Source: Minisyncoccia bacterium | GTDB taxonomy: Bacteria; Patescibacteriota; Minisyncoccia; Phycocordibacterales; UBA9973 | Direction of reading: 5' to 3' | DNA length: 64,000 nucleotides | Assembly: GCA_049287045.1 (NCBI GenBank) | Contig: JBAQFC010000001.1 | Coordinates: 67,309 to 131,308 of the forward strand | Part shown: positions 42,508 through 61,665 of the stretch, in pieces | Position numbering within the stretch: the first letter of the stretch is position 1 | How the letters are laid out: each line of letters opens with the position of its first letter | Made by a program: the position numbers and the translations under genes | Notes under the pieces: model-generated | What the model was told of the DNA's origin: nothing | Seen by the model: only the letters and a program-made list of their open reading frames with translations | Databases searched by the model: none

Positions 42508-42520
42508 ATAATAGTTTACT

Positions 42521-43159: not shown

Positions 43160-43176
43160 TAAAAGATGCCACTTGA

Positions 43177-43221: not shown

Positions 43222-43272
43222 TTTATGAAGGTTTGTCTTTTATATTTTGCTGTAAATTGGTATAATCTCTTC

Positions 43273-44982: not shown

Positions 44983-45023
44983 CCACATATCGGACATGAG
45001 GGAATCTCATGTCCGATATGTGG
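44983..45023. repeat. 41-nt perfect palindrome CCACATATCGGACATGAG-GGAAT-CTCATGTCCGATATGTGG, a variant of the CCCACATGTCSGACATGTGGG family
   Basis: It starts 1 nt after the pilB stop codon. Its half-sites resemble the 21-nt repeat. Confidence 0.7.
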
Positions 45024-45053
45024 ACGACGTGTTATTAATGAATAATAATTTTT

Positions 45054-46262
45054 ATGATATATACATACAAAGCATACAATAAAGATAATAAAATAATAGA
45101 TGGAGAATATGAAGCATCTTCCAACCAAGAAGTCGTAGAATATTTGGCTAAAATTTCTCTAACACCGGTCTCTGTTCATGCGATAAGTACAAGCAAAAAA
45201 ATTCTATCAATCGAACTATTTGACAGCATCACATCTATTGATATTGTTTTTCTAATACGTAACCTGGCGACCACAATCAAAGCGGGATTATCTATTGTTG
45301 AATCCATTGATATCTTGATCAAAGATACCAAAAAAAATTCAATGAGAAAAATCCTTCAAGGGGTCAAAGCCAAGATTGAAAACGGACAGACTCTTTCTTC
45401 TGGTTTTGAAGCTTACAAAGAATCTTTTCCACCGATTTTTATCGGTATGGTAAAAGCTGGTGAGGTCTCCGGTCAGCTTGGTAAATCTTTGTCAGAACTC
45501 GCTCGTTATCTTTCAAAAGAATATACACTTCGAAGTAAAATAAAATCAGCTCTTACTTATCCGATTATTCTTCTTATTGCTTCAGCTTTGGTTGTGACAT
45601 TGATGTTGGTTTTCGTTCTTCCAAAGCTTACTCAATCATTTGCTCAAAGTGGAGTGACACTACCTTGGATTACCAAAGCTTTTCTTTTTGTTTCTCAGAT
45701 GCTTACCTATAGTTTTATTTTGGACTTGGTTGTTCTCGGAGCGATAGTATTTTTCTTTACTTATTTCCGTAAGACAGCGACAGGAAAAAAGTTTTTCTTT
45801 TTTGTTACTTCACATACACCAGTCGCAAAGGATTTGATAAAGAAGATAGCTGTTGTTCGTTTTGCTCATACCTTTGGTAATCTGATAGGTAGTGGTCTGT
45901 CTGTTGTTGAATCTCTTTCAATCTCTTCACAGTCGATAAACAACCAGAGTTATACTGATGCGATTGATAAATCAATCGAGGATATCAAAAATGGTATCTC
46001 TGTTTCAGAAGCGCTTAGTAAATATCCGAAACTTTTCCCCAGTCTTTTGATAAGTCTTATTATGGTTGGTGAGCGTACTGGATCCCTCCAGGAAATTCTT
46101 ATGACTTTTGCAGATTTTTATGAAGAAGAAGTTGATAATACATTAAAAGAATTGACTGCAGTCTTGGAACCTGTTTTGCTTATCATTATGGGTCTGATGA
46201 TTGGTGCTATTGCTGTATCGATAATCCTTCCTATTTATCAATTAGTCGGACACTTTATTTAA
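45054..46262 (+). CDS. pilC: Type IV pilus inner-membrane platform protein PilC (GspF family)
   Basis: 402 aa with two T2SSF repeats and three TM segments. Confidence 0.85.
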   Translation: MIYTYKAYNKDNKIIDGEYEASSNQEVVEYLAKISLTPVSVHAISTSKKILSIELFDSITSIDIVFLIRNLATTIKAGLSIVESIDILIKDTKKNSMRKILQGVKAKIENGQTLSSGFEAYKESFPPIFIGMVKAGEVSGQLGKSLSELARYLSKEYTLRSKIKSALTYPIILLIASALVVTLMLVFVLPKLTQSFAQSGVTLPWITKAFLFVSQMLTYSFILDLVVLGAIVFFFTYFRKTATGKKFFFFVTSHTPVAKDLIKKIAVVRFAHTFGNLIGSGLSVVESLSISSQSINNQSYTDAIDKSIEDIKNGISVSEALSKYPKLFPSLLISLIMVGERTGSLQEILMTFADFYEEEVDNTLKELTAVLEPVLLIIMGLMIGAIAVSIILPIYQLVGHFI

Positions 46263-46263
46263 T

Positions 46264-47574
46264 ATGAAGTACTTCCGTGGCCGTCATGTCCTGAGCTTGT
46301 CGAAGGGTTTCACGATGCTTGAATTGTTGATCACTACCGCAATAGTGGTGACAGTAGCTTCAGCAGGTATTGGTTTTTATATAAATTATGGCAAGAGTGT
46401 CGACCTAAATTCTGTTGTTCAAATTTTAGCTTCTGATTTAAAACAAGCACAATCGAGATCTATGATAGGTGAGGGAGGTTTCAAATGGGGAGTGCATCTA
46501 GTGAATGGAACAAAAGATTATTATGAAATATTTTCTACCCCGGATGTTTATAGTAATGGTGCAAAAGTTATCCTCTCAACAACCTATCTATCCAGTGGTG
46601 TTACTTTTTCCAGTCCATCATCCGGTACGTCTTCGGATATTATTTTTAATAAAATATCAGGAGGAACAACTCCGTCTTTTGTTGGATTAACTTCAGGTAG
46701 TATTACTGAAAGAATCGGTCTTTCAAGTATTGGAAGTATTGAAATTGCTGAGGTTGCAATTAAAACGTTGATTGTCGCAGGCGGCGGTGGTGGCGGTGGT
46801 AATTGTAATTCTTGTGGTGGTGCAGGCGGCGGTGGTGCCGGTGGTTTGGTTTATGTACCATCGCTTGTTGTCACAAGTGGTTCAATGTCAGTCCTTGTTG
46901 GTGCAGGAGGTGCGGGTGGTGCCAATAATACCAATGGCTCATCGGCCAATGGAGTTGCTGGAACAAATTCATCATTTGGTGGTTATATTGCAACGGGTGG
47001 CGGAGGTGGCCGACCACAGAGTGGTGTCGCGGGTGGCAATGGAGGTTCTGGTGGTGGAGGCTCAGGTGGTGGTAGTCCTGTTGCTGGTGCTGGTGGTCTT
47101 GGTATATTTGGACAAGGAAATAATGGTGGTGCAGGTATTAGTTCACCTCATGGCGGAGGCGGCGGCGGAGGTGCTGGTGGCCCAGGCAGTACAGGTAGTA
47201 CGAAAGCTGGTGGTATTGGTCTTTCTTATTCTCTTAGTGGTTCAAGTATTTATTATGCTGGCGGCGGTGGTGGTGGTACATACACTTCAGGTACTGGAGG
47301 TACAGGGGGATTGGGTGGTGGTGGTAATGGTGTAAATAGTACTACTAACAATGGTTATGGTTTTTCTGGAACAGTGAATACTGGCGGTGGTGGCGGGGGA
47401 GCCAATGGAGCGCCCGTTGGTGGAGGTGGAGGAACTGGTGGTTCAGGAATAGTCATAATTAGTTACTCGACAGCTTCTGGTATAACAGCTACCGGTGGTA
47501 CAATAACTACAGTCGGTGCAAACACAGTTCACACATTTACTTCAAGCGGGACTTTTATTGTCACAGTACCGTAG
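46264..47574 (+). CDS. Pilin-like protein with a prepilin N-terminus and a 250-aa glycine-rich low-complexity domain
   Basis: KGFTMLELLITTAIVV prepilin signal, then a GGGGGGGNCNSCGGAGGGGAGG...-type region encoded by (GGT/GGC)n, and a short C-terminal beta-rich tail. Confidence 0.55.
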   Translation: MKYFRGRHVLSLSKGFTMLELLITTAIVVTVASAGIGFYINYGKSVDLNSVVQILASDLKQAQSRSMIGEGGFKWGVHLVNGTKDYYEIFSTPDVYSNGAKVILSTTYLSSGVTFSSPSSGTSSDIIFNKISGGTTPSFVGLTSGSITERIGLSSIGSIEIAEVAIKTLIVAGGGGGGGNCNSCGGAGGGGAGGLVYVPSLVVTSGSMSVLVGAGGAGGANNTNGSSANGVAGTNSSFGGYIATGGGGGRPQSGVAGGNGGSGGGGSGGGSPVAGAGGLGIFGQGNNGGAGISSPHGGGGGGGAGGPGSTGSTKAGGIGLSYSLSGSSIYYAGGGGGGTYTSGTGGTGGLGGGGNGVNSTTNNGYGFSGTVNTGGGGGGANGAPVGGGGGTGGSGIVIISYSTASGITATGGTITTVGANTVHTFTSSGTFIVTVP

Positions 47575-47580
47575 AATTTT

Positions 47581-47621
47581 GACCAGTGCTTTAGGCGCTC
47601 GGAGCGCCTAAAGCACTGGTC
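47581..47621. repeat. 41-nt perfect palindrome GACCAGTGCTTTAGGCGCTC-G-GAGCGCCTAAAGCACTGGTC (REP-like, with no U-run)
   Basis: Perfect 20-bp arms. It shares the 12-mer CCAGTGCTTTAG with the hairpin cluster at 63766-63786. Confidence 0.7.
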
Positions 47622-47640
47622 TAGTCCATACTAAATTTTC

Positions 47641-48315
47641 ATGAAAAATTTTTTCAAAAATAAAAAAATATCTTTAAACAAAGGAGCACTCTTGCTCGAA
47701 CTTTTGATTGTTATTTCATTGCTCGCGGTGATTCTTTCTTTCGGAATCAATGCGATGTTTTTGAGTTTAAAAAGTAACAGAGTCTCTGGTGAACGCGACA
47801 TTGCGAATGCATTGGCGACAGAATCCTTGGAAGCAGTGAGAGCGACAGTCGAAGAAAATTGGCAAAATATTTATGCTCCCTCTGGAATAGTAAAAGGAAC
47901 CACACATTATTACCCAAAACAATCTCTAGGAAAGTGGGTCCTTACTACCGTATCAGGAGACGGAGTTATCACCATCGGTGGTGTTGTTTTTACCAGATAT
48001 GTCATCATCGATGATGTGTGTCGAGACAACTCAACTCGTGAAGTGACAGGTGTCACACCTTGTACTATTCCGAGTACTCAATCAGATGATCCGAGTACAC
48101 AGAGAGTCTCATCAATAGTGTCTTGGCCAGGTGCAGATCCAGTCACAATGTACGAATATTTTTTTCGTTGGAAAAATAAAGTATGTACTCAAGGCGGATG
48201 GGTTGCAGGAGTACCAGGAAATTCTACGCAAGATTGCACCGGTGCTGGCACCAATTATGATTCAAAAGAAGACACAGTTTTTATCGATCCAAATGGTTCA
48301 TTTAAGCTTCAGTAA
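47641..48315 (+). CDS. Minor pilin or pseudopilin
   Basis: Prepilin motif KG|ALLLELLIVISLL with Glu at +5. Confidence 0.6.
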   Translation: MKNFFKNKKISLNKGALLLELLIVISLLAVILSFGINAMFLSLKSNRVSGERDIANALATESLEAVRATVEENWQNIYAPSGIVKGTTHYYPKQSLGKWVLTTVSGDGVITIGGVVFTRYVIIDDVCRDNSTREVTGVTPCTIPSTQSDDPSTQRVSSIVSWPGADPVTMYEYFFRWKNKVCTQGGWVAGVPGNSTQDCTGAGTNYDSKEDTVFIDPNGSFKLQ

Positions 48316-48347: not shown

Positions 48348-48587
48348 ATGTGGTATGATAAAGTTATGAAAAATATTCTTCAATTTTCAATTTCAAAAGG
48401 GGAAAATAATTACATAGCGCAAGCTGTTGGTTTTCCTATTTTTACTCAAGCAGAAAGTTTAGATCAGCTTATTGAAAATATAAAAGAAGCTACGGGTTTA
48501 CATTTCAAAGATGAGGATTTATCTGAATACGGATTTGTTCCTAAGCCATCTTTATTGATAAATTTCGAGGTTCCTCAGTATGCCTAA
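48348..48587 (+). CDS. hicB: HicB-family antitoxin (UPF0150-like)
   Basis: 79 aa; ...YIAQAVGFPIFTQAESLDQLIENIKEATGLHF... RNase-H-like fold pattern. It overlaps hicA by 8 nt. Confidence 0.55.
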   Translation: MWYDKVMKNILQFSISKGENNYIAQAVGFPIFTQAESLDQLIENIKEATGLHFKDEDLSEYGFVPKPSLLINFEVPQYA

Positions 48588-48822
48588 GTTGAAAGTTTTA
48601 TCTGGAAAAGATTTAATTGATATTTTTGCTTCTTTTGGTTTTCATATTATTGGTCAAACTGGCAGTCATGTAAAAATGCGCTGCCATAAAGATAACAATA
48701 AACAAACACTCACCATACCTCTACATAAAGAAATCGATAAAGGTCTTTTGAAAGCAATTTTTAATCAAGGTTCTATGTATATTTCAGAACAAGAGTTAAA
48801 GAAATATTTCTTTACAGAATAA
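48580..48822 (+). CDS. hicA: HicA-family mRNA interferase toxin
   Basis: 80 aa; KVLSGKDLIDIFASFGF...GSHVKM....TIPLHKEIDKGLLKAI. Confidence 0.65.
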   Translation: MPKLKVLSGKDLIDIFASFGFHIIGQTGSHVKMRCHKDNNKQTLTIPLHKEIDKGLLKAIFNQGSMYISEQELKKYFFTE

Positions 48823-48827
48823 AAAAA

Positions 48828-48855
48828 GCGCCCTCCTAGTAAGGAGGGCGCTTTC
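48828..48855 (+). terminator. Terminator hairpin with a weak U-run
   Basis: GCGCCCTCCT-AGTA-AGGAGGGCGC followed by TTTC. Confidence 0.5.
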
Positions 48856-48953
48856 AATCTTATCCACTGTTTTACTTGTTGCAGTTAATTATTAAAAGAA
48901 GTAAAATATAGGGGAGTATTCTACCGATTTTTCTGCAGACTTTTTTCAGACAT

Positions 48954-49001
48954 GAGTCGCGCTTCAACGGACACTGCGCGACATGATTTTGCAAAATCAA
49001 A
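48954..49001 (+). promoter_or_regulatory. Conserved hairpin-containing leader motif, copy 2, lying 40 nt upstream of the giant gene
   Basis: GAGTCGCGCTTCAACGGACACTGCGCGACATGATTTTGCAAAATCAAA; see 37365-37415. Confidence 0.5.
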
Positions 49002-49041: not shown

Positions 49042-52000
49042 ATGAAAAAAATTATAAAAAAAATAAATTTAAGTCGGTTTAATTTATTCTTGGTAGTTCT
49101 ACTTCTTGGAGTAGTTTCTTTTTCATTCGTGAAACTTGTTTTTGCATCCACTCCGGATACCACTAAACCGAATCCTGGACAAGCATGGAATGAGATCGGC
49201 AACGGAAGTTTTCAGATCAGCGGACCTACTGGTGGACCCACAGTTCCCAAAACTTTTATTTTTCCTGATGTTGATAATACTTATGTCATCACTGCACCGA
49301 CTCCGGTTGGAACAACAGGACAAGTTCTTACTTCCACAGGAGCTCTCGGTCAACAATCCTGGGCGACACCAACTTTCGGTAATGTCAATGGTACTGGTAC
49401 GACAAATTTTATAACCAAGTGGAACGATGCTGTCGGTACTTTAGTAAATTCTTTAATTTTTGATAATGGAACAAATGTCGGTATCGGAACAACAGCACCA
49501 GCTACACCTTTTCAAGTTGGACAAAGTGGTACAAATAAAAATTCAAGATTTTGGGGGAACATAGATGTAAATGGAGGAGGTTCATTAACTTTTGGATCTG
49601 GAGATTCTTCTATCGGATATCCTTCTGGTTATAATTTGGCTTTCAATACTTACAACGGAAGTCTGACCGAAAAAATGAGAATCACGTCCGTTGGTAATGT
49701 TGGTATTGGAACCACGAATCCATCAATGTCACTAGATGTAAAAGGTTCAGGTGCTGGACACGTTATAATGGGTAGTTGGGCTTCAAATGGAGCTTACGGA
49801 GTACTTAGTCTGAATGGTTTAAATGATACAGGTTCCAATTTTTATAGTGCAGCAGGAGGTCCTCTTTATATTAATCGTCCAACAGGACAAGGTCTATATT
49901 TTAGAGAAAATAATGCTGATCAAATGACCATTCTAAATGGTGGCAATGTTGGTATTGGAACAGTAACTCCAGGAGCAAAATTGGACGTAGAAAATCTTTC
50001 TGCTGGAATCAACGAAGGGATTCGATTATCTCATGCAAATGCTTATGATGCAGGATCCAAGATTTCTTGGTGGATGGATAATGCTTCAGAAAGTGCAAAT
50101 ATCAAAAGTGCATGGTATCCGACTCCTACATCGAAATCGTATATTGCACTCTCTACCTATGGCCCGTCATTACTTGAGAGAATGAGAATAAATGGTGATG
50201 GTAATGTCGGTATTGGATCAACAGCACCAAACGAAAAGCTGGATGTTAAATCCGGTAATATTTCTATTTCTGATTCTGCTGGAAACGAACGCGGAAGATT
50301 TTGGAGTACAGATACAGGTGGTTCACCTTATGAAACAGGATTACAAACAAGTAATTATCACCTTGTGTTAGATGCTTCCGGTTCTGGACAAAATAATATT
50401 ATTATGCGAACAGGTTCAAGTACTGTTGGTACTGGTACTGAAAAATTAAGAATTACAGGTGCAGGTCTTGTCGGTATTGGAACATCAGCTCCTGCACAGC
50501 TTCTTCAAGTTGGTAGTGCGACTTCAACAGCCAATCAGTATTCAAGAATTGATTCCGCGGCAGCATATGATGCAGGATTAGAACTCGCATCTGCTGGTGC
50601 ATCAAAATGGACTATTTACAGACCAGGAGGTACAAATGATTTGAGGTTTTATGATGCTACTGCTACTGCAGGAGATAGGCTAACTATAAAAGCAAGCACT
50701 GGTAACGTCGGCATAGGCACCACAGCACCCACTGCAAAATTAGAACTCGGAGGTACGTCAGGTGTAGACGGTTTGAAATTCCCTGACGGAACTCTTCAGG
50801 TTACCGGAGCTTCTAGTGGAGTCAAATTACTTTCGAGTGGTACTGGCCTGACAATCAACGGAAATTCTGTAACGAGAACTGCAGTTAATGCTTGGGATGC
50901 TGAAGTATATAGTCAAGACGGTTATTCTGGTGGAGCCTATGCGTCTTATGTAGTTCGCAATCTGACTGGTGTTTATTATATGGTTGGTTTGAATACAGAC
51001 CCGACTTTAAATCCTAGTTACACTAGTATAGATTATGCTTGGTATGTGCTCAATAGTACAAGTGCTTCGATTTATGAAAGTGGTACCAACATTGCTCCTG
51101 CAATCACTACTATCGCTGTAGGTGATGTGCTTGCTGTGACTTATGATGGATCAAATATCAGATATCTCCAAAACGGAGTCGTAAAAAGAACAGTGCCGGT
51201 CATTATAACTCTTCCTCTTTATTTAGATTCTTCTTTCCACAGTGGAGCTGCGACACCGGATATTAGCAATATTCAATTCGGACCTATGAGTACTGGTTCT
51301 CAATGGGCTGCAAACGGAACAAGTATTTATTACAACGGTGGTAATGTTGGAATTGGAGTTACTGCACCAAGCAATAAATTAGAAATCAGTGGAGGAGATC
51401 TTATGGTTAACGGAGCTGGAGCTTCAAAAAGCCTATACTTAAATTATGATAAGACTAGCTTTCCAAATTATGCGAGTTCATTAACTCAAACAGGTGCTGC
51501 TGATGTTTCAGGTACGCGTGGACTTGTAATAAATGCTAACAGTGGTCAAGCAGTAACAAATTATGGTATTGGTTTTGCGATTGATGGGGCTAATAAAATG
51601 TTCCTCCAAGGAAGTAGCGGCAATGTCGGTATTGGTACTACAGCACCAACATCTAAATTAGAGGTATCAGCTGGAAATATTCAAATGAGTGATGGGTATC
51701 CAGTAACTTGGGGTGATACAGTCACACCTAGAGGTCAAATAGTTACTTTTTCAGCTTCTCCTGATAGAGGCTTAAGATACACTGCACAACCAGGAGGTGT
51801 TGGATGGTTTGGAGTTCACGATTTTTATGCGGCTGACGGAGTTGCTGGAACTACACCTACATTGGCAATGAGAATAAAAGATGGCAAAGTCGGCATTGGA
51901 ACGTCGGCACCGGTTGGCAAACTTAATGTAGTCGCTGCTTCTTCTAATGTATCACAGTCTGGGCAAGCTATCGGTTTTGGAAGTACGGCAGTTCCATCTG

Positions 52001-55000
52001 GTGTAACAATGGGTTGGAATGATAATAATTACGGATGGCTCCAGTCATGGAGCAGTACGCCACTCTATGTTAATGCGTTAGGAAATGATGTCATATTCAA
52101 TAGAGATAGTGGCAAAGTCGGTATTGGAAACACTGCACCATCCGAAAAGCTCGATGTCACAGGCAATGTTGAATTCTCAGGTGCTTTGATGCCAAACAAT
52201 CTTCCAGGATCTTCTGGTCAATTTTTGACCTCTGGTGGTGCTGGAGTTGCTCCAACATGGATTGCTGGTGTGACAGGAAGTGGCACGACCAATTATGTTA
52301 CAAAATGGACACCAAACGGTACCACTCTTGGTAATTCTTTGATTTTTGATAATGGTACAAATGTCGGTATCGGTACAACAACACCAGGAGCACAACTAGA
52401 AGTAAAGGGAAACGGAACCGCCAAAATATTAATTGGAGATATGAGCTATTCTAATTATGCTGGAATTTCATTAACTGGATTAACAACTGCTGGGAATTAC
52501 ACGTTATTAACGAGAGCTGCGGACCCTGATTTGTATATCAACAGACCATCTGGTTATGCAATGCAGTTTTCAGAAGCAAACGGTGTTCCTCAGATGTTTA
52601 TTAAAACCGGTGGTAACGTCGGTATTGGAACAACAGTACCAACTCAAAAATTAACCGTGAATGGTGCGATTACTCAAGGAACCAACGGAGCTTCTTGGAC
52701 TTTAGATACTTCCGTCGTTGCAAACGATTGGACAATGATTGGTTCCTCTGACTCTGTTACTCAGAGATATTTACACTTTGGTTATAGAGCAGCTGATGCA
52801 ATAGGAGGTGCATACACTGATAGTGCAAAAATAAACTTCTACACAGGAGGAGCTATTCTTGGAATCAACGGTGGTAAAGTTGGTGTTGGTGTAGCATTAC
52901 CTACAGCCAAGTTCCAAGTCGGAACATCTTCTTCTTCTGCGGGTGTAGATGTGTCAGTTATAGGTTCATTTGGAGGTAGTGTTGTAGGATCAGCTTATCC
53001 TCTAACTGTTTCAAATACTGCTGCTATAACCGTAGGAAATAAAGCATTGATGACGTATGTCATGGGACCTGCTTGGTCTTCTACTGCTTATGCTGGTGCA
53101 TATCTTGAAAACGTAGATGCGTCTACCTCATATGTTATTGGAACTTATCGTCCTTCTGATTCTCTAGCAGAAAGAATGAGAGTCACATCCAATGGAAATG
53201 TCGGAATTGGAAATACAGCACCACTTAATAAACTTACCGTAACAGCTTCCACTATGCCTACTGGACAAGGTGCATTTTCTGCATCAAACACTTCAACTTC
53301 TGGAACTCAATATGGTCTTGCTGGTACAGCAACTGGTGCTAGTACGACAAATGTTGCTGGTTACTTTAGTGCCTCAGGTGCGACAAACAATTATGGTTTA
53401 ATTGTTAATAGTGGTCTTGTTGGTATTGGTACACAAACACCATCTTTTCCTTTGGAAATTGTCAAAGCTGCACCTCTTGGTACACAATTGGCTTTAACTC
53501 AATCTGCTGGAAATACAACAGGATTGTTGGCATGGACTGGTGGATCTTTTTATATACAAACAGGTTCGAAATATGATTCGTCTGCTGCTTGGGTTAGTAC
53601 CAACGGCACAACAGTCGGTAACCAAGGGTATTCTTATTTCGGTCAAGACGGGTCTGTTTCACTCGGTATGGTTTCTAGTGCTCTTACTGGTACTACTATT
53701 TCTTCATGGAGAACTTCTCCATTTCAGTTGACTGCTGCAGGCAATCTAGGTCTTGGTGGTATTACTCCAACAGTTGCACTTGAAGTTTTAGGTAGTACCA
53801 CAAACAGTTCTGTAAAAGTTCGTGGAATAGAAATACAAGGTTATGCAGTGAACAATGAATGGATAGGTGAAAATATTTATTATAGTGGAGGATGGAAATA
53901 TCGAGCTAACGGTTTTGGAAATCAGATATATTTCGGTGGTAGTGCTACCGGCGATATTTCATTTTACACTGCGCCAAATAATGTCGGTGGTGCAGGTGCA
54001 GCTGCTACTCTTACAAATCGTTTTACAATTACTCCTGGTGGCAGTATCGGTATAGGTACAACAAACCCAGGTGCAGCCCTAGAAGTAAATGGTCAAGTGA
54101 AAATCACCGGAGGTACTCCAGGTGCTGGCGAAGTTCTTACTTCAGATGCAGTTGGTTTAGCTACATGGGTTCTTCCCGTAGCATCAGTCACAGGTACAGG
54201 TACACAAAATTATGTAACTAAATGGAATAATGCAGGAGGTACTGCTATTGGTAACTCTTTGGTTTTTGATAATGGAACAAATGTTGGTATAGGTACAACA
54301 GCACCAGGATATAAATTAGATGTTTCAACAACTGGACCTGGTGGAATGCATGTTGCTACAAACACTTCTACTGCTGCTAATCCATCATTTTATTTGACAG
54401 ATGCAGCTGCGAGTTATTCTGATTTTGAAATTTATTCTGATGCTACTAATGTTAAATTAGGACCTTATCTTGATAAGGGTATTCAGTTTGTTGGTAATGC
54501 CGGAACTGAAACAAAAATGACAATTGATAGCTCAGGCAACGTAGGTATAGGCACAACAGCAGCAACACTACTAGATGTAAAAGGTGCTTCACCTATAATC
54601 CAGGTACAAGATAATGCCGCAGGTTATGCTATCACTCGTTACCGAGCTGGTGGTTCTGGAGTAAGTGATGCTTATTTTGGAGTTGATGCTGGAGTCGTGG
54701 GTTTGATTACTGGTGGCGGAGGAATTCCTTATGCTGCTGTTATCTCTCGTCAGGGCGCATACCCAGTGCAATTTGGAACAAACAACCTTGCTCGAATGAC
54801 GATAAGTAGTGCTGGACTTGTTGGTATTGGATTAACAAACCCAACAGCTCCTCTAGAAATAAACGATAGTACATGGACCACTGCTTCTGTCCGACCAACT
54901 GTTTTGAAACTAGGTTCTTATACTGATGCTGCAAACGAAGGTCCATTTATAGACTTCACTTCACGATGGACTGGTCTTTATCAGGATTGGGTTGTAGGAC

Positions 55001-58000
55001 GTATCGGTGGCGTCTATGATAATTCTGTTGCAAACGGTGGAGCATTAGTTTTCTATACAAACTACGGTGTTGGAGCAGCCAGTGCGACAGTGAAAGAACA
55101 AATGAGAATTAATCCACTCGGCAATGTTGGTATTGGTACATCATTACCTGATGTACTTGGTTTAGCAGCAGGTCATACTTCTCTTACCCTTGCAGGAGCT
55201 ACTGGTGATTTTTATGCAAATTTTGAGCTTCAAGGACACAGAGGTGTAGGAGGTAACCAGGTTGGTACAATATCTTTCTTTCAAGACACAACTAGAACCG
55301 CATTGATTAGTGTTAATAATGGAGTCTCTGCTTTAGATGAAAGTTCTATGACATTTTTTACTAAAACAACTGGTGTTGCAATGGGAGAAAGAATGAGAAT
55401 TGATAAAGCAGGCAACGTCGGTATTAGAAATACAGCACCATTAGAACTCTTATCTCTCGGAACAGCTGGAACAACAGCTGGTATATTGTCTTTTGCAGGA
55501 GCGACTTCCGGTAAAGCAATCCTTCAAGCAACAGCAGCAGCTGGCACTCCCACTCTCAATCTTCCAACCACATCTGGAACACTTGCTCTTACATCCGATG
55601 TACCAGGAACAATCTACGATTCTACATGGCAGAGAATAGTAAATCCTGGTGGAGCATATTATTCTTCAACCGGATCTTTGGGAACTGGTGCAATAGCCAT
55701 CAATCTTCCTGTCGGAATGGGAAACCAAATGATCAGTATGACCATAAAGGTTTATGAATACGCGACCAACGAGTCATTTGAAATTCATGCTGGAGGATAT
55801 ATGTACACCTCAGGTAATACCTGGGCAAATAATCCATTTGCTTATATCGTAGGAAATCCAGGAGTTGATAGAAGATTTACAGTAAGATTTGGTTATACAG
55901 CTGGAGGTAAAGCTGTTGTTTATATTGGTGAGACTGGATCCACATGGGCATATCCTCAGGTGGCAGTCACCGATGTCTTTGTTGGTTTCCAGGGTCAATC
56001 AGTTGCTCTTACTACTGGTTGGTCAGTTGGTTTTGCAACTGCTTTTGAAAACGTTACAGCTACTGTTACTAACACTCAGGTTGGTTATGCTCTTAGTACC
56101 AACACAGCCAATACCACTGTATTGCGAGATGCTTCAGGCAATTTCGCTGCTGGAGTTATAACTGCTAATTTAAGCGGTTATAAAAACATAGATAATGGTA
56201 ATGAGATAACCATTGCTAATGGTTTCGCTGGTGGTGCTTTATATTTGAACTATCGTGGTGCTTCTAGTGCAATTACTTCATTAAATATTATGAATGGTAT
56301 GTCAGGTGGCGTTTATGCAAATGTTCAGGCATTAGCTTTCGTAAAATCAGGAGGTACAGCTGCTCAGTTTTTAAAAGCAGACGGAAGTGTTGATTCAAAT
56401 GTGTACATGACTTCTGGTAGTCAATGGACAACTTCAGGAACAAATCTTTACGATTCTTTGGCAGGCAATGTTGGTATTGGATCAACAAACCCAGTTAATA
56501 AACTTGAGGTAGCATCTTCCACTATGCCTACTGGGCAAGGTATAATTACTGCGTCAAATACTTCAACAGCAGGAACTCAATATGGTATTGCTGGTACAGC
56601 AACTGGTGCTAGTACGACAAACGTTGCAGGCTACTTTAGCGCCTCGGGTGCTACAAATAATTATGGTTTGATTGTTAACGGTGGTCTTGTGGGTATAGGA
56701 ACACAAACACCAACTTATCCACTTTCAATCGTATCAAGCACAGCTGGTAAAGCTTATGGTGATTTAGAGATTCAAGATACGGGCACGGACGGTCCATATT
56801 TAACTTTCCATGACCCAGGTTCTATGGCATGGTCTATGGGAGTCACAAACAGTACACAAAATTTATCTATAAGACAAAATAATATAACTGGAACTGCAGC
56901 AATGACTATTCTAAATACGAGTGGCAACGTCGGTGTTGGTGTATCTCCATCAGAAAAGTTAGATGTTTATGGAAATGCTATATTTGGAAGTAACGCTGCA
57001 AACTCATATATTGGAATAAGAAGACCCGACGGTTCGGTTACCGCAACATTTAAAATAGCTACTGATACTGCAGGACTTTTAATTAAGCAAGGTGGTGGTG
57101 GTTCTTATATCGATTTTAGTACAAATGCCACAACAAACGCAGTTAGAATTATAGATAATGGCTACGTCGGTATCGGAACGACGGCGCCAACCAATAACCT
57201 GCATGTTCTAGGTGTCGGTCCTGGACACCTCATCCGTTCTGAAACTACCGCAGCGACTGGAGATGGTTACAGTGGTATTCAATTGACTGCAGGAAGCCGC
57301 TCAGGGTATTTGTTTGTTGCAAATCAAACTGGTACGAGTTATGGAGGTGACGGTGGCTTAAATATGTACAGTTCCAATGGTCCATTATTGTTCTGGCCAG
57401 GTGCTGTTGAGAAGATGAGGATTTTAGCAAACGGTAATGTCGGTATTGGAGTCACAGCTCCACCAGTTAAATTATCCGTCGGTGCGGTTACTTCAGGATA
57501 CGGAATGATTGGAGTAAAACAAACAAGTCCATTGAACTACAATGGTATCTGGGTTGAATCTTCAACAAATTCTAAATCTGTAACTATTGGTCATACTGGT
57601 GTTTATGGTTCAATTGGCACGAACTATGCTACTGGTGGTGATGCCCCTTATTCAAACTTAGTTCTTAATGAAGGTGGCGGCAACGTCGGTATTAGAAATA
57701 CAGCACCATTGGAACTCTTGTCTATTGGAACCTCTGGAACAACGGCTGGTGTATTATCCCTTGCCGGAGCAACATCCGGTAAAGCAATCATTAATGTTCT
57801 AGCAGCAGCTGGCACTCCCACCCTCACTCTTCCCACAACAACCGGAACTTTGGCTCTTTTGACTGATATGCCAGCTAATATATCTTTGGTTACTACAGGA
57901 GGTGCGACAGTAAATGGTAACGATGTAACAAATGGTGGAGCTGGATCTTGGACTAGTGATGTATATAGTAAAGATGGTTTTGTCGGTGGAGCATATGTAT

Positions 58001-61000
58001 CAGCTGTAGTTGATTCTATTGCTACTTCATATATGATTGCTCTTAATACTGATCCAACTCTAAACAATTCTTATACTTCTTTGGATTATGCTTGGTATGT
58101 GACAAGTAGTTCCAATGGTTATATTTATGAAAGTGGAGTAAATCCTCAAACAGGTATTACTCTAGCTGTCGGAGATGTTTTGGCTATTGTCTATGATGGT
58201 ACCAATGTTAAGTATCTACGAAATGGAGTTGTCCAAAGAACTGTTGCTGCAGTCATAACAGCTCCACTTTATTTTGATTCCTCTTTCGGTACTGTAAGTC
58301 CTACTTCTACATTTAGTCATATTCAAATTGGATCAATGAGTGTTGGCTCTCAATGGGCTGCAAACGGAACAAGTATTTATTACAACGGTGGCTACGTAGG
58401 TATTGGAACTTCAACACCAGATGCACCACTACACGCAAAAGGTGGTACAGCAATGTCGTCTGGTTGGAATAGAACAGCGACATTAGAAGCCACATTTCCT
58501 GGCCTTATATTTAACAGTAATAATACAAAATGGGGTGGTATTGTGTATGATTACAGTTCAAACATGATTATTAGAGTTGGAGCAACAAGTAATGATATTA
58601 TGGGAACTGGAGTAAGTGCTTTGAGCTTTAATGCAACAACAGGCGCAGCATCTTTTGGGTCAACTATTACATCTGGTTTAATCAACGGACAAACAATCTC
58701 AAGTGCTGCGAATTTTACGGGTACATTGGCTGCAGCGACATCCGTTAATACTAATAATTTTATCGTGAATACAGGAACCGGGTATGGTCTTTGTTTCTGG
58801 TCTAGTTGTGCTAATTGGAACATTAGTATGGGAAATACAGCAGAGTATCATTATGGACCAGTAACAGATTACGCTATAAAAACGAGCATGGATAGTGTAG
58901 CAGGAAGAGGTTGGACATGGGGAACAGTCGGTGTGATTCCTGTAGCTGCCTTGAGTAATACTGGAGTAATGCAAATAGCTGGAACAATGACTGCATCGTC
59001 TTTGATTAAATCAGGAGGTACAGCTGCTCAGTTCTTGAAAGCTGATGGATCTGTTGATTCTTCAACTTATATAACCGCTTCTGCTCTTTCCGGTTATGTC
59101 ACTTCCGCAGCTCCGTCATTCTCCGGATCTTTGAAACGTACAGCACCTGGAACAGGTTATCTAGACGGAAACGGTGTTGAAGTACCGAGCGTAAACACTG
59201 GTGTTATTTATTCTGCTAATCCTTCTCCAGTTGGTGGTAATGCACCTACAGCAACATCTTTAAATACAATGATTGGTATGGGCTTTACAACCGGAAATAT
59301 CGCTGGTATTAGTGCAACTTACGCTGGAACTGCAGCTCATTGGGGTCAATATGTCGTTGCTAATCAAACTGGTATAGTTTTCTTGGATGCAACAGATGGA
59401 AATATTTATAATACTGGTGGTATGGTCAACGGACAAACTATCACAAGTGCTGCGAACTTTACAGGTTCTTTGACTGTTGCTGGTAATACTACATTGGGAG
59501 GTACTTCTAACTTTACAGTAAATAGTGCTAGATCTTCAGGTATGTTCTTGAAAGCTGATACTATTGATTCTCAAGCTTCAGGTGATCCATTAGAACTTCA
59601 ATACGGAATTCCAGGAGACGTTGTTGTGTTTGGTACCGATAGTAACTTACAAGTTCAAGGTACAGGTACTTCTGCTTTTGCTGGAGTTGTTACTGTTAGT
59701 GGTCTTACTTTAAATACTAATCGTGTGAATATGACAAGTGGAACCAATCTTCATCTTGACCCATTTTCTACTGGAGCTGTTTACCTAGCTTATTATACTG
59801 GAACAGGAGGAACAGTGTTTGGAAATGGTGCAAATGGTGCAAGTGGTGCAAATGTTTCTTCTACTGGTGTAGTCACTGGAACAAACTTTTCCGGTCCTGG
59901 AACAGGTCTTACAGGTACAGCAGCGAGTTTGACTACTGGATATATATCATCTCCTGATGGAGATCGTGTTGCTGGTAATAAATTACCTACAACTACTCCA
60001 CAGGCAGTTAGATTTGACTTTTCTACTGCTGCTTCTGCTGGTATGCCAGGTGGAAACTATGCAGGTGTTATGACATATGCTGTTTGGACTGGAACAACTG
60101 CTTCGACAGGGGATGCATCATACCAATTAGCTTTCGGTAGTACGGCTGCGAATGGTGGTGGAACTCCAGTATTAAATATTCGAAAGGGTATAGATAGTAC
60201 ATGGAACTCTTGGTATAACATTATTACTTCTGCGAACATTGCCTCTCAAGCAGTAGGTACTGCAACCAATGCAACTAACGCAAGCACTATATTGTCAACT
60301 ACAGATTCAACAACTAACTCACTTATCCCTGTACTTTTTGGGGGAAGTTGGATGACTACTGGTCAAGTAAACGTAAAAAATAATCCATACCTTTACTATA
60401 ATCCAAGTACCAGTACATTTTATACTCCTAATGAAGAAATTGGAACCAGTTCTATGACATCTCTTAATGTTACAAGTGATTATCTTGGTAATAATAAAAG
60501 AATGTTTGCAACTGCTGACTCTTGGCTTCGTTTTAACGGTAGTAATGATTTCACTTCCGGTATTTATGCTGGTACAGGAATTTTTAGAACTGACGGAAAT
60601 CTACAAGTAGGATCAGGCGGTGCTTCATTTAATGTTACTGCTGCTGGTGCAGTCACTGTTCTTGGTGGTATTGCTCTTAATACCAACGGAGCATCTGGTG
60701 TTGGTTTAAAGTTGGGTGCCACAGGTTCTGAAGCAAGTATTATTTCCAATTCATCTACAGGTCATTTGGATATTACTCCACGTTCTGGCTATAATGCAAT
60801 TTTTACTGCTGGTAAGGTTACTATGGGATCTACATCATCACCAGCAAGTAATAGTACGCTAAATGTCTTTACTCCTGCTGCTACTGGTGGTGGTGTTAGA
60901 ATTGATAAAATATCAGGTTATCAAACAGTATTTTTGGGTGATGGTGGAAGTGCCACTTCTCATGGTGTTCTTCAATTGTATACATCAGGAACAATGTCTA

Positions 61001-61602
61001 CTCAAATTTATGCAGGAGGAAATTCATTCTTTAATTCGTCAGGTAACCTTGGTGTTGGTATTACTGCTCCAACTGATAAATTGAGTGTTGTTGGTAATAT
61101 TAGAACAACAGGTTGTTTATATTATGCGTCTTCATCATTAGGTACTTGTGCATCTGATAAACAAATTAAAAAAGATATTCATCCATACAATCTTGGTCTT
61201 AATGCTTTACTCGGTATTAATCCTGTGCAGTTTAAATACAATGGTCTAGGTGGTTTCCAAGATGATGGTAGTACACAACTCGGAGTTGTTGCCCAAGATA
61301 TTGAAAAAACAACACCTGATTTGGTTAAAAGCTTAATGGTCCAACTTCATAAGGATGATAAAAATCAAACAGAGATAAAGTCGGTTGATTACGGTGCTTT
61401 CACTTATGTTATTATTAATTCTATTAAAGAATTTTATGTTAAGTTTACAAATGAAGTAGCAAGTATCTCTGATAAACTTGTTGCGATAGTTAATCGTATC
61501 AATGGTCACGATATAAAAATTAAAGAACTTGAGAAACAAAACAATGATCTTAAATCTCTAGTTTGTATAGATCATCCAACAGCAGCAATCTGTAAAAAAT
61601 AA
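49042..61602 (+). CDS. Giant (4186 aa) secreted fibrous repeat protein with a C-terminal peptidase-S74-type intramolecular chaperone/auto-processing domain (phage tail-fibre or endosialidase type)
   Basis: N-terminal signal/TM. More than 40 copies of a module ending ...GNVGIGTT(A/N)P...KL(D/E)V. Two copies of a 140-aa jelly-roll-like domain (DYAWYV...GDVLA..YDG.N..YL.NGV). The C-terminus, ASDKQIKKDI.PYNLGLNALLGINPVQFKY...LGVVAQDIEKTTPDLV...VDYGAFTYVIINSIKEF....E...L, matches the S74 intramolecular chaperone autocleavage domain. Confidence 0.85.
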   Translation: MKKIIKKINLSRFNLFLVVLLLGVVSFSFVKLVFASTPDTTKPNPGQAWNEIGNGSFQISGPTGGPTVPKTFIFPDVDNTYVITAPTPVGTTGQVLTSTGALGQQSWATPTFGNVNGTGTTNFITKWNDAVGTLVNSLIFDNGTNVGIGTTAPATPFQVGQSGTNKNSRFWGNIDVNGGGSLTFGSGDSSIGYPSGYNLAFNTYNGSLTEKMRITSVGNVGIGTTNPSMSLDVKGSGAGHVIMGSWASNGAYGVLSLNGLNDTGSNFYSAAGGPLYINRPTGQGLYFRENNADQMTILNGGNVGIGTVTPGAKLDVENLSAGINEGIRLSHANAYDAGSKISWWMDNASESANIKSAWYPTPTSKSYIALSTYGPSLLERMRINGDGNVGIGSTAPNEKLDVKSGNISISDSAGNERGRFWSTDTGGSPYETGLQTSNYHLVLDASGSGQNNIIMRTGSSTVGTGTEKLRITGAGLVGIGTSAPAQLLQVGSATSTANQYSRIDSAAAYDAGLELASAGASKWTIYRPGGTNDLRFYDATATAGDRLTIKASTGNVGIGTTAPTAKLELGGTSGVDGLKFPDGTLQVTGASSGVKLLSSGTGLTINGNSVTRTAVNAWDAEVYSQDGYSGGAYASYVVRNLTGVYYMVGLNTDPTLNPSYTSIDYAWYVLNSTSASIYESGTNIAPAITTIAVGDVLAVTYDGSNIRYLQNGVVKRTVPVIITLPLYLDSSFHSGAATPDISNIQFGPMSTGSQWAANGTSIYYNGGNVGIGVTAPSNKLEISGGDLMVNGAGASKSLYLNYDKTSFPNYASSLTQTGAADVSGTRGLVINANSGQAVTNYGIGFAIDGANKMFLQGSSGNVGIGTTAPTSKLEVSAGNIQMSDGYPVTWGDTVTPRGQIVTFSASPDRGLRYTAQPGGVGWFGVHDFYAADGVAGTTPTLAMRIKDGKVGIGTSAPVGKLNVVAASSNVSQSGQAIGFGSTAVPSGVTMGWNDNNYGWLQSWSSTPLYVNALGNDVIFNRDSGKVGIGNTAPSEKLDVTGNVEFSGALMPNNLPGSSGQFLTSGGAGVAPTWIAGVTGSGTTNYVTKWTPNGTTLGNSLIFDNGTNVGIGTTTPGAQLEVKGNGTAKILIGDMSYSNYAGISLTGLTTAGNYTLLTRAADPDLYINRPSGYAMQFSEANGVPQMFIKTGGNVGIGTTVPTQKLTVNGAITQGTNGASWTLDTSVVANDWTMIGSSDSVTQRYLHFGYRAADAIGGAYTDSAKINFYTGGAILGINGGKVGVGVALPTAKFQVGTSSSSAGVDVSVIGSFGGSVVGSAYPLTVSNTAAITVGNKALMTYVMGPAWSSTAYAGAYLENVDASTSYVIGTYRPSDSLAERMRVTSNGNVGIGNTAPLNKLTVTASTMPTGQGAFSASNTSTSGTQYGLAGTATGASTTNVAGYFSASGATNNYGLIVNSGLVGIGTQTPSFPLEIVKAAPLGTQLALTQSAGNTTGLLAWTGGSFYIQTGSKYDSSAAWVSTNGTTVGNQGYSYFGQDGSVSLGMVSSALTGTTISSWRTSPFQLTAAGNLGLGGITPTVALEVLGSTTNSSVKVRGIEIQGYAVNNEWIGENIYYSGGWKYRANGFGNQIYFGGSATGDISFYTAPNNVGGAGAAATLTNRFTITPGGSIGIGTTNPGAALEVNGQVKITGGTPGAGEVLTSDAVGLATWVLPVASVTGTGTQNYVTKWNNAGGTAIGNSLVFDNGTNVGIGTTAPGYKLDVSTTGPGGMHVATNTSTAANPSFYLTDAAASYSDFEIYSDATNVKLGPYLDKGIQFVGNAGTETKMTIDSSGNVGIGTTAATLLDVKGASPIIQVQDNAAGYAITRYRAGGSGVSDAYFGVDAGVVGLITGGGGIPYAAVISRQGAYPVQFGTNNLARMTISSAGLVGIGLTNPTAPLEINDSTWTTASVRPTVLKLGSYTDAANEGPFIDFTSRWTGLYQDWVVGRIGGVYDNSVANGGALVFYTNYGVGAASATVKEQMRINPLGNVGIGTSLPDVLGLAAGHTSLTLAGATGDFYANFELQGHRGVGGNQVGTISFFQDTTRTALISVNNGVSALDESSMTFFTKTTGVAMGERMRIDKAGNVGIRNTAPLELLSLGTAGTTAGILSFAGATSGKAILQATAAAGTPTLNLPTTSGTLALTSDVPGTIYDSTWQRIVNPGGAYYSSTGSLGTGAIAINLPVGMGNQMISMTIKVYEYATNESFEIHAGGYMYTSGNTWANNPFAYIVGNPGVDRRFTVRFGYTAGGKAVVYIGETGSTWAYPQVAVTDVFVGFQGQSVALTTGWSVGFATAFENVTATVTNTQVGYALSTNTANTTVLRDASGNFAAGVITANLSGYKNIDNGNEITIANGFAGGALYLNYRGASSAITSLNIMNGMSGGVYANVQALAFVKSGGTAAQFLKADGSVDSNVYMTSGSQWTTSGTNLYDSLAGNVGIGSTNPVNKLEVASSTMPTGQGIITASNTSTAGTQYGIAGTATGASTTNVAGYFSASGATNNYGLIVNGGLVGIGTQTPTYPLSIVSSTAGKAYGDLEIQDTGTDGPYLTFHDPGSMAWSMGVTNSTQNLSIRQNNITGTAAMTILNTSGNVGVGVSPSEKLDVYGNAIFGSNAANSYIGIRRPDGSVTATFKIATDTAGLLIKQGGGGSYIDFSTNATTNAVRIIDNGYVGIGTTAPTNNLHVLGVGPGHLIRSETTAATGDGYSGIQLTAGSRSGYLFVANQTGTSYGGDGGLNMYSSNGPLLFWPGAVEKMRILANGNVGIGVTAPPVKLSVGAVTSGYGMIGVKQTSPLNYNGIWVESSTNSKSVTIGHTGVYGSIGTNYATGGDAPYSNLVLNEGGGNVGIRNTAPLELLSIGTSGTTAGVLSLAGATSGKAIINVLAAAGTPTLTLPTTTGTLALLTDMPANISLVTTGGATVNGNDVTNGGAGSWTSDVYSKDGFVGGAYVSAVVDSIATSYMIALNTDPTLNNSYTSLDYAWYVTSSSNGYIYESGVNPQTGITLAVGDVLAIVYDGTNVKYLRNGVVQRTVAAVITAPLYFDSSFGTVSPTSTFSHIQIGSMSVGSQWAANGTSIYYNGGYVGIGTSTPDAPLHAKGGTAMSSGWNRTATLEATFPGLIFNSNNTKWGGIVYDYSSNMIIRVGATSNDIMGTGVSALSFNATTGAASFGSTITSGLINGQTISSAANFTGTLAAATSVNTNNFIVNTGTGYGLCFWSSCANWNISMGNTAEYHYGPVTDYAIKTSMDSVAGRGWTWGTVGVIPVAALSNTGVMQIAGTMTASSLIKSGGTAAQFLKADGSVDSSTYITASALSGYVTSAAPSFSGSLKRTAPGTGYLDGNGVEVPSVNTGVIYSANPSPVGGNAPTATSLNTMIGMGFTTGNIAGISATYAGTAAHWGQYVVANQTGIVFLDATDGNIYNTGGMVNGQTITSAANFTGSLTVAGNTTLGGTSNFTVNSARSSGMFLKADTIDSQASGDPLELQYGIPGDVVVFGTDSNLQVQGTGTSAFAGVVTVSGLTLNTNRVNMTSGTNLHLDPFSTGAVYLAYYTGTGGTVFGNGANGASGANVSSTGVVTGTNFSGPGTGLTGTAASLTTGYISSPDGDRVAGNKLPTTTPQAVRFDFSTAASAGMPGGNYAGVMTYAVWTGTTASTGDASYQLAFGSTAANGGGTPVLNIRKGIDSTWNSWYNIITSANIASQAVGTATNATNASTILSTTDSTTNSLIPVLFGGSWMTTGQVNVKNNPYLYYNPSTSTFYTPNEEIGTSSMTSLNVTSDYLGNNKRMFATADSWLRFNGSNDFTSGIYAGTGIFRTDGNLQVGSGGASFNVTAAGAVTVLGGIALNTNGASGVGLKLGATGSEASIISNSSTGHLDITPRSGYNAIFTAGKVTMGSTSSPASNSTLNVFTPAATGGGVRIDKISGYQTVFLGDGGSATSHGVLQLYTSGTMSTQIYAGGNSFFNSSGNLGVGITAPTDKLSVVGNIRTTGCLYYASSSLGTCASDKQIKKDIHPYNLGLNALLGINPVQFKYNGLGGFQDDGSTQLGVVAQDIEKTTPDLVKSLMVQLHKDDKNQTEIKSVDYGAFTYVIINSIKEFYVKFTNEVASISDKLVAIVNRINGHDIKIKELEKQNNDLKSLVCIDHPTAAICKK

Positions 61603-61630
61603 TCTAAAATTAAAAAATACTATTAAAAAT

Positions 61631-61665
61631 AGGCTAGATTCTGAAAAGAATCTAGCCTATTTTAT
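61631..61665 (+). terminator. Rho-independent terminator of the giant gene
   Basis: AGGCTAGATTC-TGAAAA-GAATCTAGCCT followed by ATTTTATTT. Confidence 0.75.

Follow-up and report, generated by a model that had tools for sequence, protein, structure and literature searches.

How ultra-small bacteria of the candidate phyla radiation (CPR, or Patescibacteria) recognise and attach to their hosts is so far largely unexplained, and a 64,000-nucleotide stretch of a Minisyncoccia bacterium genome (GenBank assembly GCA_049287045.1, contig JBAQFC010000001.1, positions 67,309 to 131,308 of the forward strand; hereafter the window) raises this question in a tangible form. Downstream of a type IV pilus (T4P) locus, the window carries a gene for a protein of 4186 residues with the features of a phage tail fibre, which we call the giant fibre. 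Does this protein belong to the cell or to a phage, is it part of the pilus, and what could it bind? We consider it rather likely that the giant fibre is a cell-surface trimeric adhesin of the tail-fibre type with which the Minisyncoccia bacterium binds a host or partner cell, and we hold the structural part of this account, taken without the host-binding role, with considerably more confidence. The features discussed below are located in Table 1.

The gene consists of a single frame of 4186 codons that begins with ATG, contains no internal stop and is closed by a stop codon, which bears out the 12.6-kb gene proposed in a first-pass annotation made from the sequence alone. Glycine, threonine, serine and alanine together make up 46% of the protein, and only six cysteines are present. 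Peptidase_S74 is the only Pfam family found in the whole protein: PF13884 matches residues 4038-4096 (E 2.5e-9, 37.7 bits against a gathering score of 22), and no NCBIfam model matches the fibre. In an alignment of 19 sequences (the giant fibre and 18 homologous C-termini) Ser4038, Asp4039 and Lys4043 are invariant, and the segment from Ser4038 to the C-terminal end comprises 149 residues. A profile of the C-terminus matches the solved chaperone domains of the phage S16 long tail fibre (6F45, E 1.5e-18) and of MyRF (7DC3, E 7e-18), and also the T5 L-shaped fibre (8HQZ, E 2.5e-9), a putative tail fibre (8JOV) and the GA-1 neck appendage (3GUD). Moreover, the last ~190 residues are about 55% identical to Bdellovibrionota proteins annotated as "tail fiber domain-containing". 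The first-pass annotation had predicted an S74 end and suggested a profile search of it; the score above the gathering threshold, the invariant catalytic dyad and the solved relatives all agree with that prediction. Judged from its sequence, the C-terminus is a genuine S74 intramolecular chaperone, for which trimerisation-dependent autoproteolysis is predicted. Two cysteine pairs lie in this part of the protein, one at residues 4025-4037 (GCLYYASSSLGTC, 61114-61152) just before the cleavage serine and the other at residues 4173-4184 (C-x8-C, 61558-61593). Both are conserved with several Bdellovibrionota-like homologues and may be linked by disulfide bonds, the first in the tip before cleavage and the second in the chaperone.

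The shaft of the protein is dominated by repeats. We counted 30 capping-loop motifs of the form [NKLSY][VIL]G[IVL][GR]x2-4[PA], compared with a mean of 0.4 and a maximum of 4 in 1000 residue shuffles. The motifs recur with a period of 73-109 residues (median 86); the "dozens" of modules announced by the first-pass annotation were roughly right, but the length of about 70 residues given for them was not. Two PHROG tail-fibre families match the repeats, phrog_18345 in 10 stretches (E 7e-49) and phrog_9942 in nine (E 7e-43), and among solved structures a profile made from 20 repeat units picks out five Bdellovibrio bacteriovorus fibre fragments, 8OND (Bd2133) at E 2.3e-20 followed by 8OML, 8OJN, 8ON4 and 8OL4. 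These fibres, named "mosaic adhesive trimers" (MATs) by Caulton et al. 2024, have the capping-loop consensus V-G-G/N-pi-x-x-P-x-x-x-L (PMC10769870), and the GNVGIGTTAPxxKL motif of the giant fibre is the same capping loop. In addition, a cassette-start motif (GQVLTS…W…TGTGTTNYxTKW…NSLIFDNGTNVGIGTT) is present in three paralogous copies, starting at residues 93, 1059 and 1696, and residues 1385-1476 are 82% identical to residues 2475-2566. In view of the cassette-start copies and the duplicated blocks, the protein looks like several fibre cassettes concatenated and partly duplicated, and it appears to have grown in this way. The cassette-start motif is also repeated in other large fibre-like proteins, e.g. 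P0239 and P0251. The latter, a protein of 2698 residues from a Logan assembly, lacks a signal peptide, carries the same cassette-start motifs and has a strong S74 end (63 bits). We regard it as a probable phage tail fibre, very long and akin to the giant-fibre shaft.

At the opposite end of the protein the evidence points to a cellular base. The sole strongly hydrophobic stretch of the fibre lies at about residues 7-38 (Kyte-Doolittle windows above 1.6 start at residues 7-20 only), follows a Lys/Arg-rich segment (MKKIIKKINLSR) and has VFA↓ST at its end. In both sequence pattern and hydropathy this resembles a Sec signal peptide, with VFA↓S as the putative site, in line with the signal or transmembrane N-terminus noted earlier. 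A phmmer search with residues 1-140 against 1.84 billion cluster representatives returned 58 protein matches. Where the alignment begins at the N-terminus of the match itself, the leader is shared together with a ~55-residue module, which we call PNPGH after a motif in it; these matches are hypothetical proteins of 750-1300 residues from Ca. Nomurabacteria, Pacebacteria and Parcubacteria, many of them truncated at contig ends; the remaining matches concern the cassette-start motif within large proteins. After the leader, the family follows the pattern A-x-T-PNPGH-x-W-x-E-x-G-D/N-G-x-F…GPT…T-x-x-FPD, which the giant fibre shares and in which the A-x-T junction is conserved among the members, and of the 16 invariant columns in an N-terminal alignment of eight sequences, 11 fall inside the module. 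The relatives (e.g. MCX6756491.1, MBP6931263.1 and KKR20268.1) have the same leader and module as the fibre at 36-43% identity, and their bodies are likewise Gly/Thr/Ser-rich and fibre-like. However, they reach only a third to a fifth of its length, in most of them no S74 end can be recognised, and none is a full-length orthologue. One member gives a weak S74 match and the others contain no Pfam domain, which recalls the split between S74 and non-S74 MATs.

Several further modules are found along the protein. Residues ~590-780 and ~2942-3130 are 58-62% identical (E 3e-45), and the duplicated domain, described as lectin- or jelly-roll-like in the first-pass annotation, is predicted to be a ConA-like/SPRY beta-sandwich (pLDDT 81, pTM 0.82), present in two copies as claimed. 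Its best match among predicted viral structures is a structural protein of Cellulophaga phage phi13:1 (E 1.6e-14, 29% identity, TM 0.83); the domain is also found in the YD-repeat protein P0001 and in the phage-type tail fibre P0060, and a word-indexed database gave one match only. The module at residues 2187-2348 is 58% identical to part of P0078 and 48% identical to P0106, and it occurs in P0251, the signal-less S74 protein introduced above. Shorter duplications link residues 3210-3279 with 3458-3529, and FLKADGS motifs stand at residues 2443 and 3331. A remarkably well conserved module is that at residues 3615-3740: 27 aligned homologues are 46-60% identical with 25 invariant columns, and single proteins reach 79%. 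It occurs in 75 IMG/VR viral contigs (up to 82% identity), on a 294-kb contig that carries T4 gp13, gp15 and sheath genes, in the tail fibre of Curvibacter phage P26059A, and in genomes of Gracilibacteria, Paceibacterota, Peribacteria, Chryseobacterium and Pedobacter. On these comparisons the giant fibre is a mosaic whose cassettes are also in circulation among the tail-fibre genes of phages.

Among characterised proteins, the MATs come closest. They are chromosomally encoded, signal-peptide-bearing, surface-displayed trimeric beta-helices of ~1000 residues with a role in prey handling, and their chains close with an S74 domain bearing SDxxxK or with another kind of adhesive tip (PMC10769870). 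Like the S74 subgroup of MATs (e.g. Bd3182), the giant fibre is encoded by a chromosomal bacterial gene, and its start has the pattern of a signal peptide; like them, it combines a long capping-loop beta-helix, a mosaic of adhesive domains and an S74 end with SDxxxK, and it is probably a very long relative of these Bdellovibrio prey-binding fibres. It differs in being about four times longer (4186 versus ~1000 residues), in having a Parcubacteria-type PNPGH module in place of the beta-rich N-terminal domain of ~130 residues, and in carrying lectin-like domains inside the shaft besides the tip. Moreover, MATs belong to a Gram-negative predator, whereas the bacterium with the giant fibre is one of the Minisyncoccota, a group that NCBI taxonomy assigns to the kingdom Bacillati and that is not known to have an outer membrane. 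The MAT relatives listed so far are from Omnitrophica, Micavibrio, Uabimicrobium and Dokdonia, with no Patescibacteria among them (PMC10769870). With phage fibres (K1F endosialidase, the T5 pb1/L-shaped fibre, S16 gp37, the GA-1 neck appendage) the giant fibre has the C-terminal domain and its catalytic dyad in common, and phage proteins also share the PHROG tail-fibre repeats, the module at residues 3615-3740 and the ConA-like domain. However, a Sec leader and a cellular N-terminal module stand where phage fibres have a virion-attachment domain, within the window, which reaches 2.4 kb beyond it, the gene is not part of a phage cluster, and the protein is larger than the phage-like relatives retrieved (at most 2698 residues). 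MyRF, a eukaryotic membrane-bound transcription factor and as such unlike the fibre, shares with it only the trimerising, self-cleaving cassette in its ICA domain (7DC3, the match given above); the capping-loop feature is also common to MyRF (PMC10769870). Bacterial S74-capped tail-fibre-like adhesins are already known, and NCBI annotates many bacterial "tail fiber domain-containing proteins". In the searchable literature we found no paper linking such adhesins to Patescibacteria, and what sets the giant fibre apart is the host lineage, the base module, the internal lectin-like domains and the roughly fourfold greater length.

These observations suggest how the protein could work. The Sec-type leader would take the chain across the membrane. 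Three S74 domains would then come together and start the folding of the triple beta-helix, which would proceed from the C- towards the N-terminus, while the 30 GNVGIGTTAPxxKL loops would cap successive helix segments; these folding steps are proposed because of the homology to K1F/T5-type chaperone domains and to the Bdellovibrio MAT fibres. Ser4038 with Lys4043 is predicted to cut off the chaperone, leaving ~4000 residues per chain and an exposed distal tip, and the PNPGH module at the mature N-terminus may hold the fibre on the cell envelope. Scaled from Bd3182 (922 residues, ~550 Å; PMC10769870), the fibre would be roughly 0.3 µm long, comparable to the size of a cell. The ligands of the distal tip and of the two lateral ConA-like/SPRY domains could be glycans or proteins on the surface of another cell, for which the host or partner that such reduced bacteria depend on is the most plausible candidate. 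Cultivated Minisyncoccota are obligate epibionts or parasites. In a cultivated patescibacterium, the one that is genetically tractable, adhesins and T4P are essential for epibiotic growth (PMC10633639). Given this lifestyle and this need for adhesins, host capture would be the most plausible function of the fibre.

Several points weigh against a surface-displayed, host-binding adhesin. Trimerisation, cleavage and surface display are predictions, and so is the ligand. A beta-rich domain of ~130 residues directly behind the signal peptide is called invariant in MATs (PMC10769870), and the Bdellovibrionota-like homologues of the fibre C-terminus do carry it. With a profile built from six of these homologues it was not found in residues 36-273 of the giant fibre (hhalign probability 0.3%), and BLAST gave nothing. 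About 1100 residues (2187-2470, 3130-3600 and 3741-3990) are without a Pfam family or a solved relative, and PDB sequence searches with residues 2176-2473, 3130-3613 and 3740-4003 gave no match. A whole-protein scan of 185,579 species genomes found no full-length orthologue, and the fibre may be a strain-specific, evolutionarily short-lived construct. If, finally, the leader is cleaved and PNPGH fails to hold on to the envelope, the cell would shed the fibre instead of displaying it.

The size and the origin of the gene invite two other explanations. A 12.6-kb frame could be an assembly chimera in which several shorter paralogous fibre genes were joined at conserved repeat motifs, and there are three internal cassette-start motifs of a type found ~90 residues from the N-terminus of the fibre, an exact repeat of 44 nt at 51298 and 58348, and related fibre genes that in metagenome-assembled genomes (MAGs) are often broken at contig ends. 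However, that repeat is the longest exact one inside the gene, only 20 31-mers occur more than once, the duplicated blocks are just 74-84% identical at the DNA level and Tandem Repeats Finder reported nothing relevant. With exact repeats so short and blocks so diverged, we see no sign of a collapsed-repeat artefact, and the DNA-level repeats are old. The frame is also unbroken throughout and uniform in the GC content of third codon positions (GC3), it has one leader and one S74 end, as one gene should have, and proteins of 2360-2700 residues with similar cassettes exist independently; a chimera is very improbable. We give equally little credence to a tail-fibre gene left behind by a prophage or tailocin. 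Every recognisable module of the fibre has phage relatives, and signal-less proteins of 2360-2700 residues with the same cassettes exist, P0251 being S74-ended as well. Against this stand the Sec-type leader, the lineage-specific cellular N-terminal module, a terminator of the gene's own, and a GC3 (0.209) identical to that of the genome (0.21-0.31 in other genes of the genome and window), by which the gene is compositionally native. No phage structural genes were found in the 49 kb upstream or in the 2.4 kb downstream to the window end; the neighbours are the T4P genes, hicA, an FG-GAP gene and housekeeping genes, and the rest of the window is ordinary chromosome, with CTP synthase, an enolase-pyruvate kinase fusion, histidyl-tRNA synthetase (HisRS), DnaE and tRNA-Gln. 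The fibre gene therefore looks cellular rather than prophage-borne, as the first-pass annotation had maintained. Recent transfer was considered as the cause of the raised overall GC of the gene and was rejected, because GC3 is the same as the genome's; the rise stems from second codon positions (GC2) in a Gly/Ala/Thr/Ser-rich protein.

It is more tempting to take the fibre for an accessory or tip adhesin of the adjacent pilus, the two forming one attachment machine, yet this too we regard as improbable. The pilus locus encodes PilM/N, two pilins, an open reading frame (ORF), PilB, PilC, a Gly_rich_2 pilin and a ComGE-like pilin. Its PilB (43225-44982) is 100% identical to MFZ2205083.1, a protein encoded on a 146.6-kb contig of a Minisyncoccia MAG. 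The next relatives are 70-83% identical, and those with names belong to Nomurabacteria, Yonathbacteria, Pacebacteria and the Parcubacteria group; exact look-ups of this PilB, the fibre and P0116 in a contig index gave nothing. The last pilus gene ends at 48315, 727 bp before the fibre gene begins, and the fibre gene lies on the same strand as the distal pilus genes. However, a gene pair and a strong hairpin intervene: a 72-residue ORF in antitoxin position, for which Pfam gave no hit, the hicA toxin gene (48580-48822, HicA_toxin E 6e-15) and a GC-rich 14-bp hairpin (48824-48855) between hicA and the fibre gene. The pilus genes do lie upstream, as the first-pass annotation stated, but not immediately so. 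Moreover, the fibre has no PF07963 (N_methyl) match and no G↓FxxxE motif, that is, no prepilin leader, whereas the three neighbouring pilins do match. We compared the locus with 80 metagenomic loci whose PilB is 57-82% identical, 31 of which extend at least 4 kb beyond the ComGE-like gene, using tblastn with 300-residue pieces of the fibre at E ≤ 1e-6. The order of the pilus operon was kept in the 80 loci wherever flanking sequence was present, but no piece of the fibre matched downstream of it in any of the 31. Instead, 19 of the 31 have a different secreted ORF of at least 1000 residues after the operon, and these ORFs differ from one another; in L028, which is among the closest relatives, the large protein in this slot starts with a pilin-like leader. 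Thus the fibre is not a conserved partner of the pilus, and it occupies a slot after the pilus operon where the lineage keeps changing large surface proteins. Two cases hint at a looser link. In the Peribacteria locus L005, a 2418-residue ORF with the 3615-3740 module has PilC and a gene for a PilB-like ATPase 2-3 kb ahead of it, the only other pilus-fibre adjacency among six CPR genome loci. In the homologue P0015, a weak prepilin motif at the N-terminus is joined to an S74 C-terminus, although this protein has no pilus genes nearby itself. The single apparatus of fibre and T4P envisaged earlier, and the homologous giant genes that were to be sought beside T4P loci of related genomes, find no support in a protein without a prepilin leader, in a separate transcription unit and absent from the 31 related loci. 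The readiest competitor of a host-directed adhesin is a surface role with another aim, such as binding of environmental polysaccharides or particles, aggregation of cells, a protective fibrous coat or a decoy for phages that use the same receptors. ConA-like/SPRY and tail-fibre modules bind glycans in general, and the same modules occur in free-living Bacteroidota (Chryseobacterium, Pedobacter). On the other hand, Minisyncoccia genomes are reduced and the cultivated members are obligate parasites or epibionts needing adhesins, and among characterised proteins the nearest relatives serve a predator in recognising other cells (PMC10769870). We regard such a role as unlikely, though it deserves more weight than the other alternatives, and continue to prefer an adhesin that binds a host or partner cell.

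Table 1. Features of the giant fibre gene and its surroundings. Nucleotide positions refer to the window (position 1 is its first nucleotide); residue numbers (aa) refer to the giant fibre.
Feature	Position	Strand	Basis or remarks
Type IV pilus locus	39201..48315	PilM/N on -	Pfam and NCBIfam; order kept in 80 metagenomic loci
72-aa ORF, hicA and hairpin between pilus operon and fibre gene	48366..48855	+	Pfam, hairpin search
Upstream motif, ~50 nt	48952..49001	+	Hairpin GTCGCGC-N13-GCGCGAC, then palindrome TGATTTTGCAAAATCA; 40 nt before ATG
Giant fibre gene	49042..61602	+	Single ORF, 4186 aa and stop, no internal stops
Sec-type leader, aa 1-36	49042..49149	+	Basic n-region, ~23-residue hydrophobic core, VFA↓S; putative cleavage
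PNPGH base module, aa 37-92 (TP..PNPGQAWNEIGNGSFQISGPT..KTFIFPDVDNT)	49150..49317	+	phmmer and alignment
Cassette-start motif no. 1, aa 93-160 (GQVLTS..W..GTGTTNFITKW..NSLIFDNGTNVGIGTTAP)	49318..49521	+	Paralogous copies
First beta-helix repeat block, aa 145-585, 6 capping loops	49474..50796	+	Motif positions; MAT profile match
ConA-like/SPRY beta-sandwich, copy 1, aa 590-765 (predicted)	50809..51336	+	
Long beta-helix repeat run, aa 768-2140	51343..55461	+	Holds cassette-starts no. 2 and no. 3; PHROG matches
Cassette-start motif no. 2	52216-52416	+	Inside aa 768-2140 run
Cassette-start motif no. 3	54127-54336	+	Inside aa 768-2140 run
Linker module, copy 1, aa 2121-2191 (GNVGIRNTAPLELLSLG...LNLPTTSGTLALTSD)	55402..55614	+	75% identity to aa 2877-2947
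Non-repeat module, aa 2187-2348 (…KVYEYATNESFEIHAGGYMY…)	55600..56085	+	Relatives P0078, P0106, P0251
Further beta-helix repeat modules, aa 2476-2880	56467..57681	+	Internal comparison
Linker module, copy 2, aa 2877-2947	57670..57882	+	Internal comparison
ConA-like/SPRY beta-sandwich, copy 2, aa 2942-3115 (predicted)	57865..58386	+	58-62% identity to copy 1
Non-repeat Gly/Ser/Thr-rich region, aa 3130-3600, with short internal duplications	58429..59841	+	
Conserved tail-fibre module, aa 3615-3740 (SPDGDR..KLPTT..VRFDF..NYAGVMTY..GDASYQLAF..WNSWY)	59884..60261	+	
Last capping loop (NLGVGITAPTDKLSVV), aa 4002-4017	61045..61092	+	20 residues ahead of the predicted cleavage serine
Peptidase_S74 chaperone domain, aa 4038-4186, helical tail ending C-x8-C	61153..61599	+	PF13884
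Predicted catalytic Ser4038 and Lys4043	61153-61155 and 61168-61170	+	S-D-x-x-x-K motif, S4038-D-K-Q-I-K4043
Intrinsic terminator hairpin, 17 bp, then U-tract	61626..61663	+	-24.7 kcal/mol, z = -8.7

The fibre gene has its own terminator, as predicted in the first-pass annotation, and none of 200 shuffles was as stable as this hairpin and U-tract. The leader motif that had been described as conserved is present ahead of the gene, with the palindrome consensus TGATTTyGCwAAATCA, and its second copy in the window (37364-37415) precedes a 62-codon ORF by 32 nt; a 26-nt pattern of the motif has two matches in the window where none is expected. The motif was absent from the 105 loci collected, 80 T4P-related ones among them. 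The RNA fold of the motif was no better than that of shuffles, and it may be a protein-binding site shared by the two genes. The 62-codon ORF itself (37447-37635) gave no Pfam hit and has a terminator-like hairpin of its own behind it.

Other observations concern the pilus locus and the loci compared with it. Two tandem, near-identical palindromes of 21 nt (CCCACATGTCCGACATGTGGG / CCCACATGTCGGACATGTGGG) at 43170-43222, directly ahead of the pilB start codon, may act as an operator or form an RNA structure, and a near-perfect hairpin of ~20 bp (GACCAGTGCTTTAGGCGCTC/GGAGCGCCTAAAGCACTGGTC) lies at 47581-47621 between the genes for the Gly-rich pilin and the ComGE-like protein. The Gly-rich pilin (46264-47574), which has the N_methyl motif, carries a Gly_rich_2 domain (PF21722, E 7e-20). 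PF21722 is also precomputed for P0059, a protein holding the 3615-3740 module, and a comparison of the pilin with the fibre revealed no similarity. The slot after the pilus operon in loci L026-L105 is filled by varied secreted proteins of 1000-1800 residues, some of which share a C-terminal region; examples are L041 15108-18902, L028 15981-19535 and L080 14131-19575, none with a homologue in the window. L005 (1-11554) is the Peribacteria MAG contig CAZZNY010000001.1, in which UGA is read as Gly.

Elsewhere in the window, the gene after the fibre (61753-63675) encodes a 640-residue FG-GAP/VCBS-repeat protein with a Por_Secre_tail domain, the type A sorting domain of the type IX secretion system (T9SS; E 9e-13). 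To our knowledge, such a signal is unexpected in a Minisyncoccia genome. At 13022-15094, one ORF of 690 residues fuses enolase (residues 5-413) to a pyruvate kinase segment (residues ~500-684, a partial model match). An ORF of 607 residues at 20401-22224 combines an N-terminal superfamily 2 (SF2) helicase part with a C-terminal domain resembling sigma-70 region 4 and shows weak similarity to MzaA of the MZA anti-phage system.

The giant fibre extends the phage-type, S74-capped trimeric fibres of bacteria to Minisyncoccia, in a form four times longer and with a different base module. Its two ConA-like domains and the tip left after cleavage are candidate host-binding domains, the PNPGH module provides a sequence signature for finding the rest of the family, and the region after the pilus operon emerges in this lineage as a hotspot for the swapping of large surface proteins. 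A bolder proposal, which we put forward only as a speculative one, is that Parcubacteria and Minisyncoccia domesticated receptor-binding cassettes of phages into a lineage-specific family of cell-anchored fibres defined by PNPGH, the giant member serving as a multi-cassette, multivalent tether of ~0.3 µm that captures the host before close contact driven by the pilus. If this were true, the binding modules exchanged with phages could be used to predict, from nothing but sequence, which host an uncultured CPR bacterium has.

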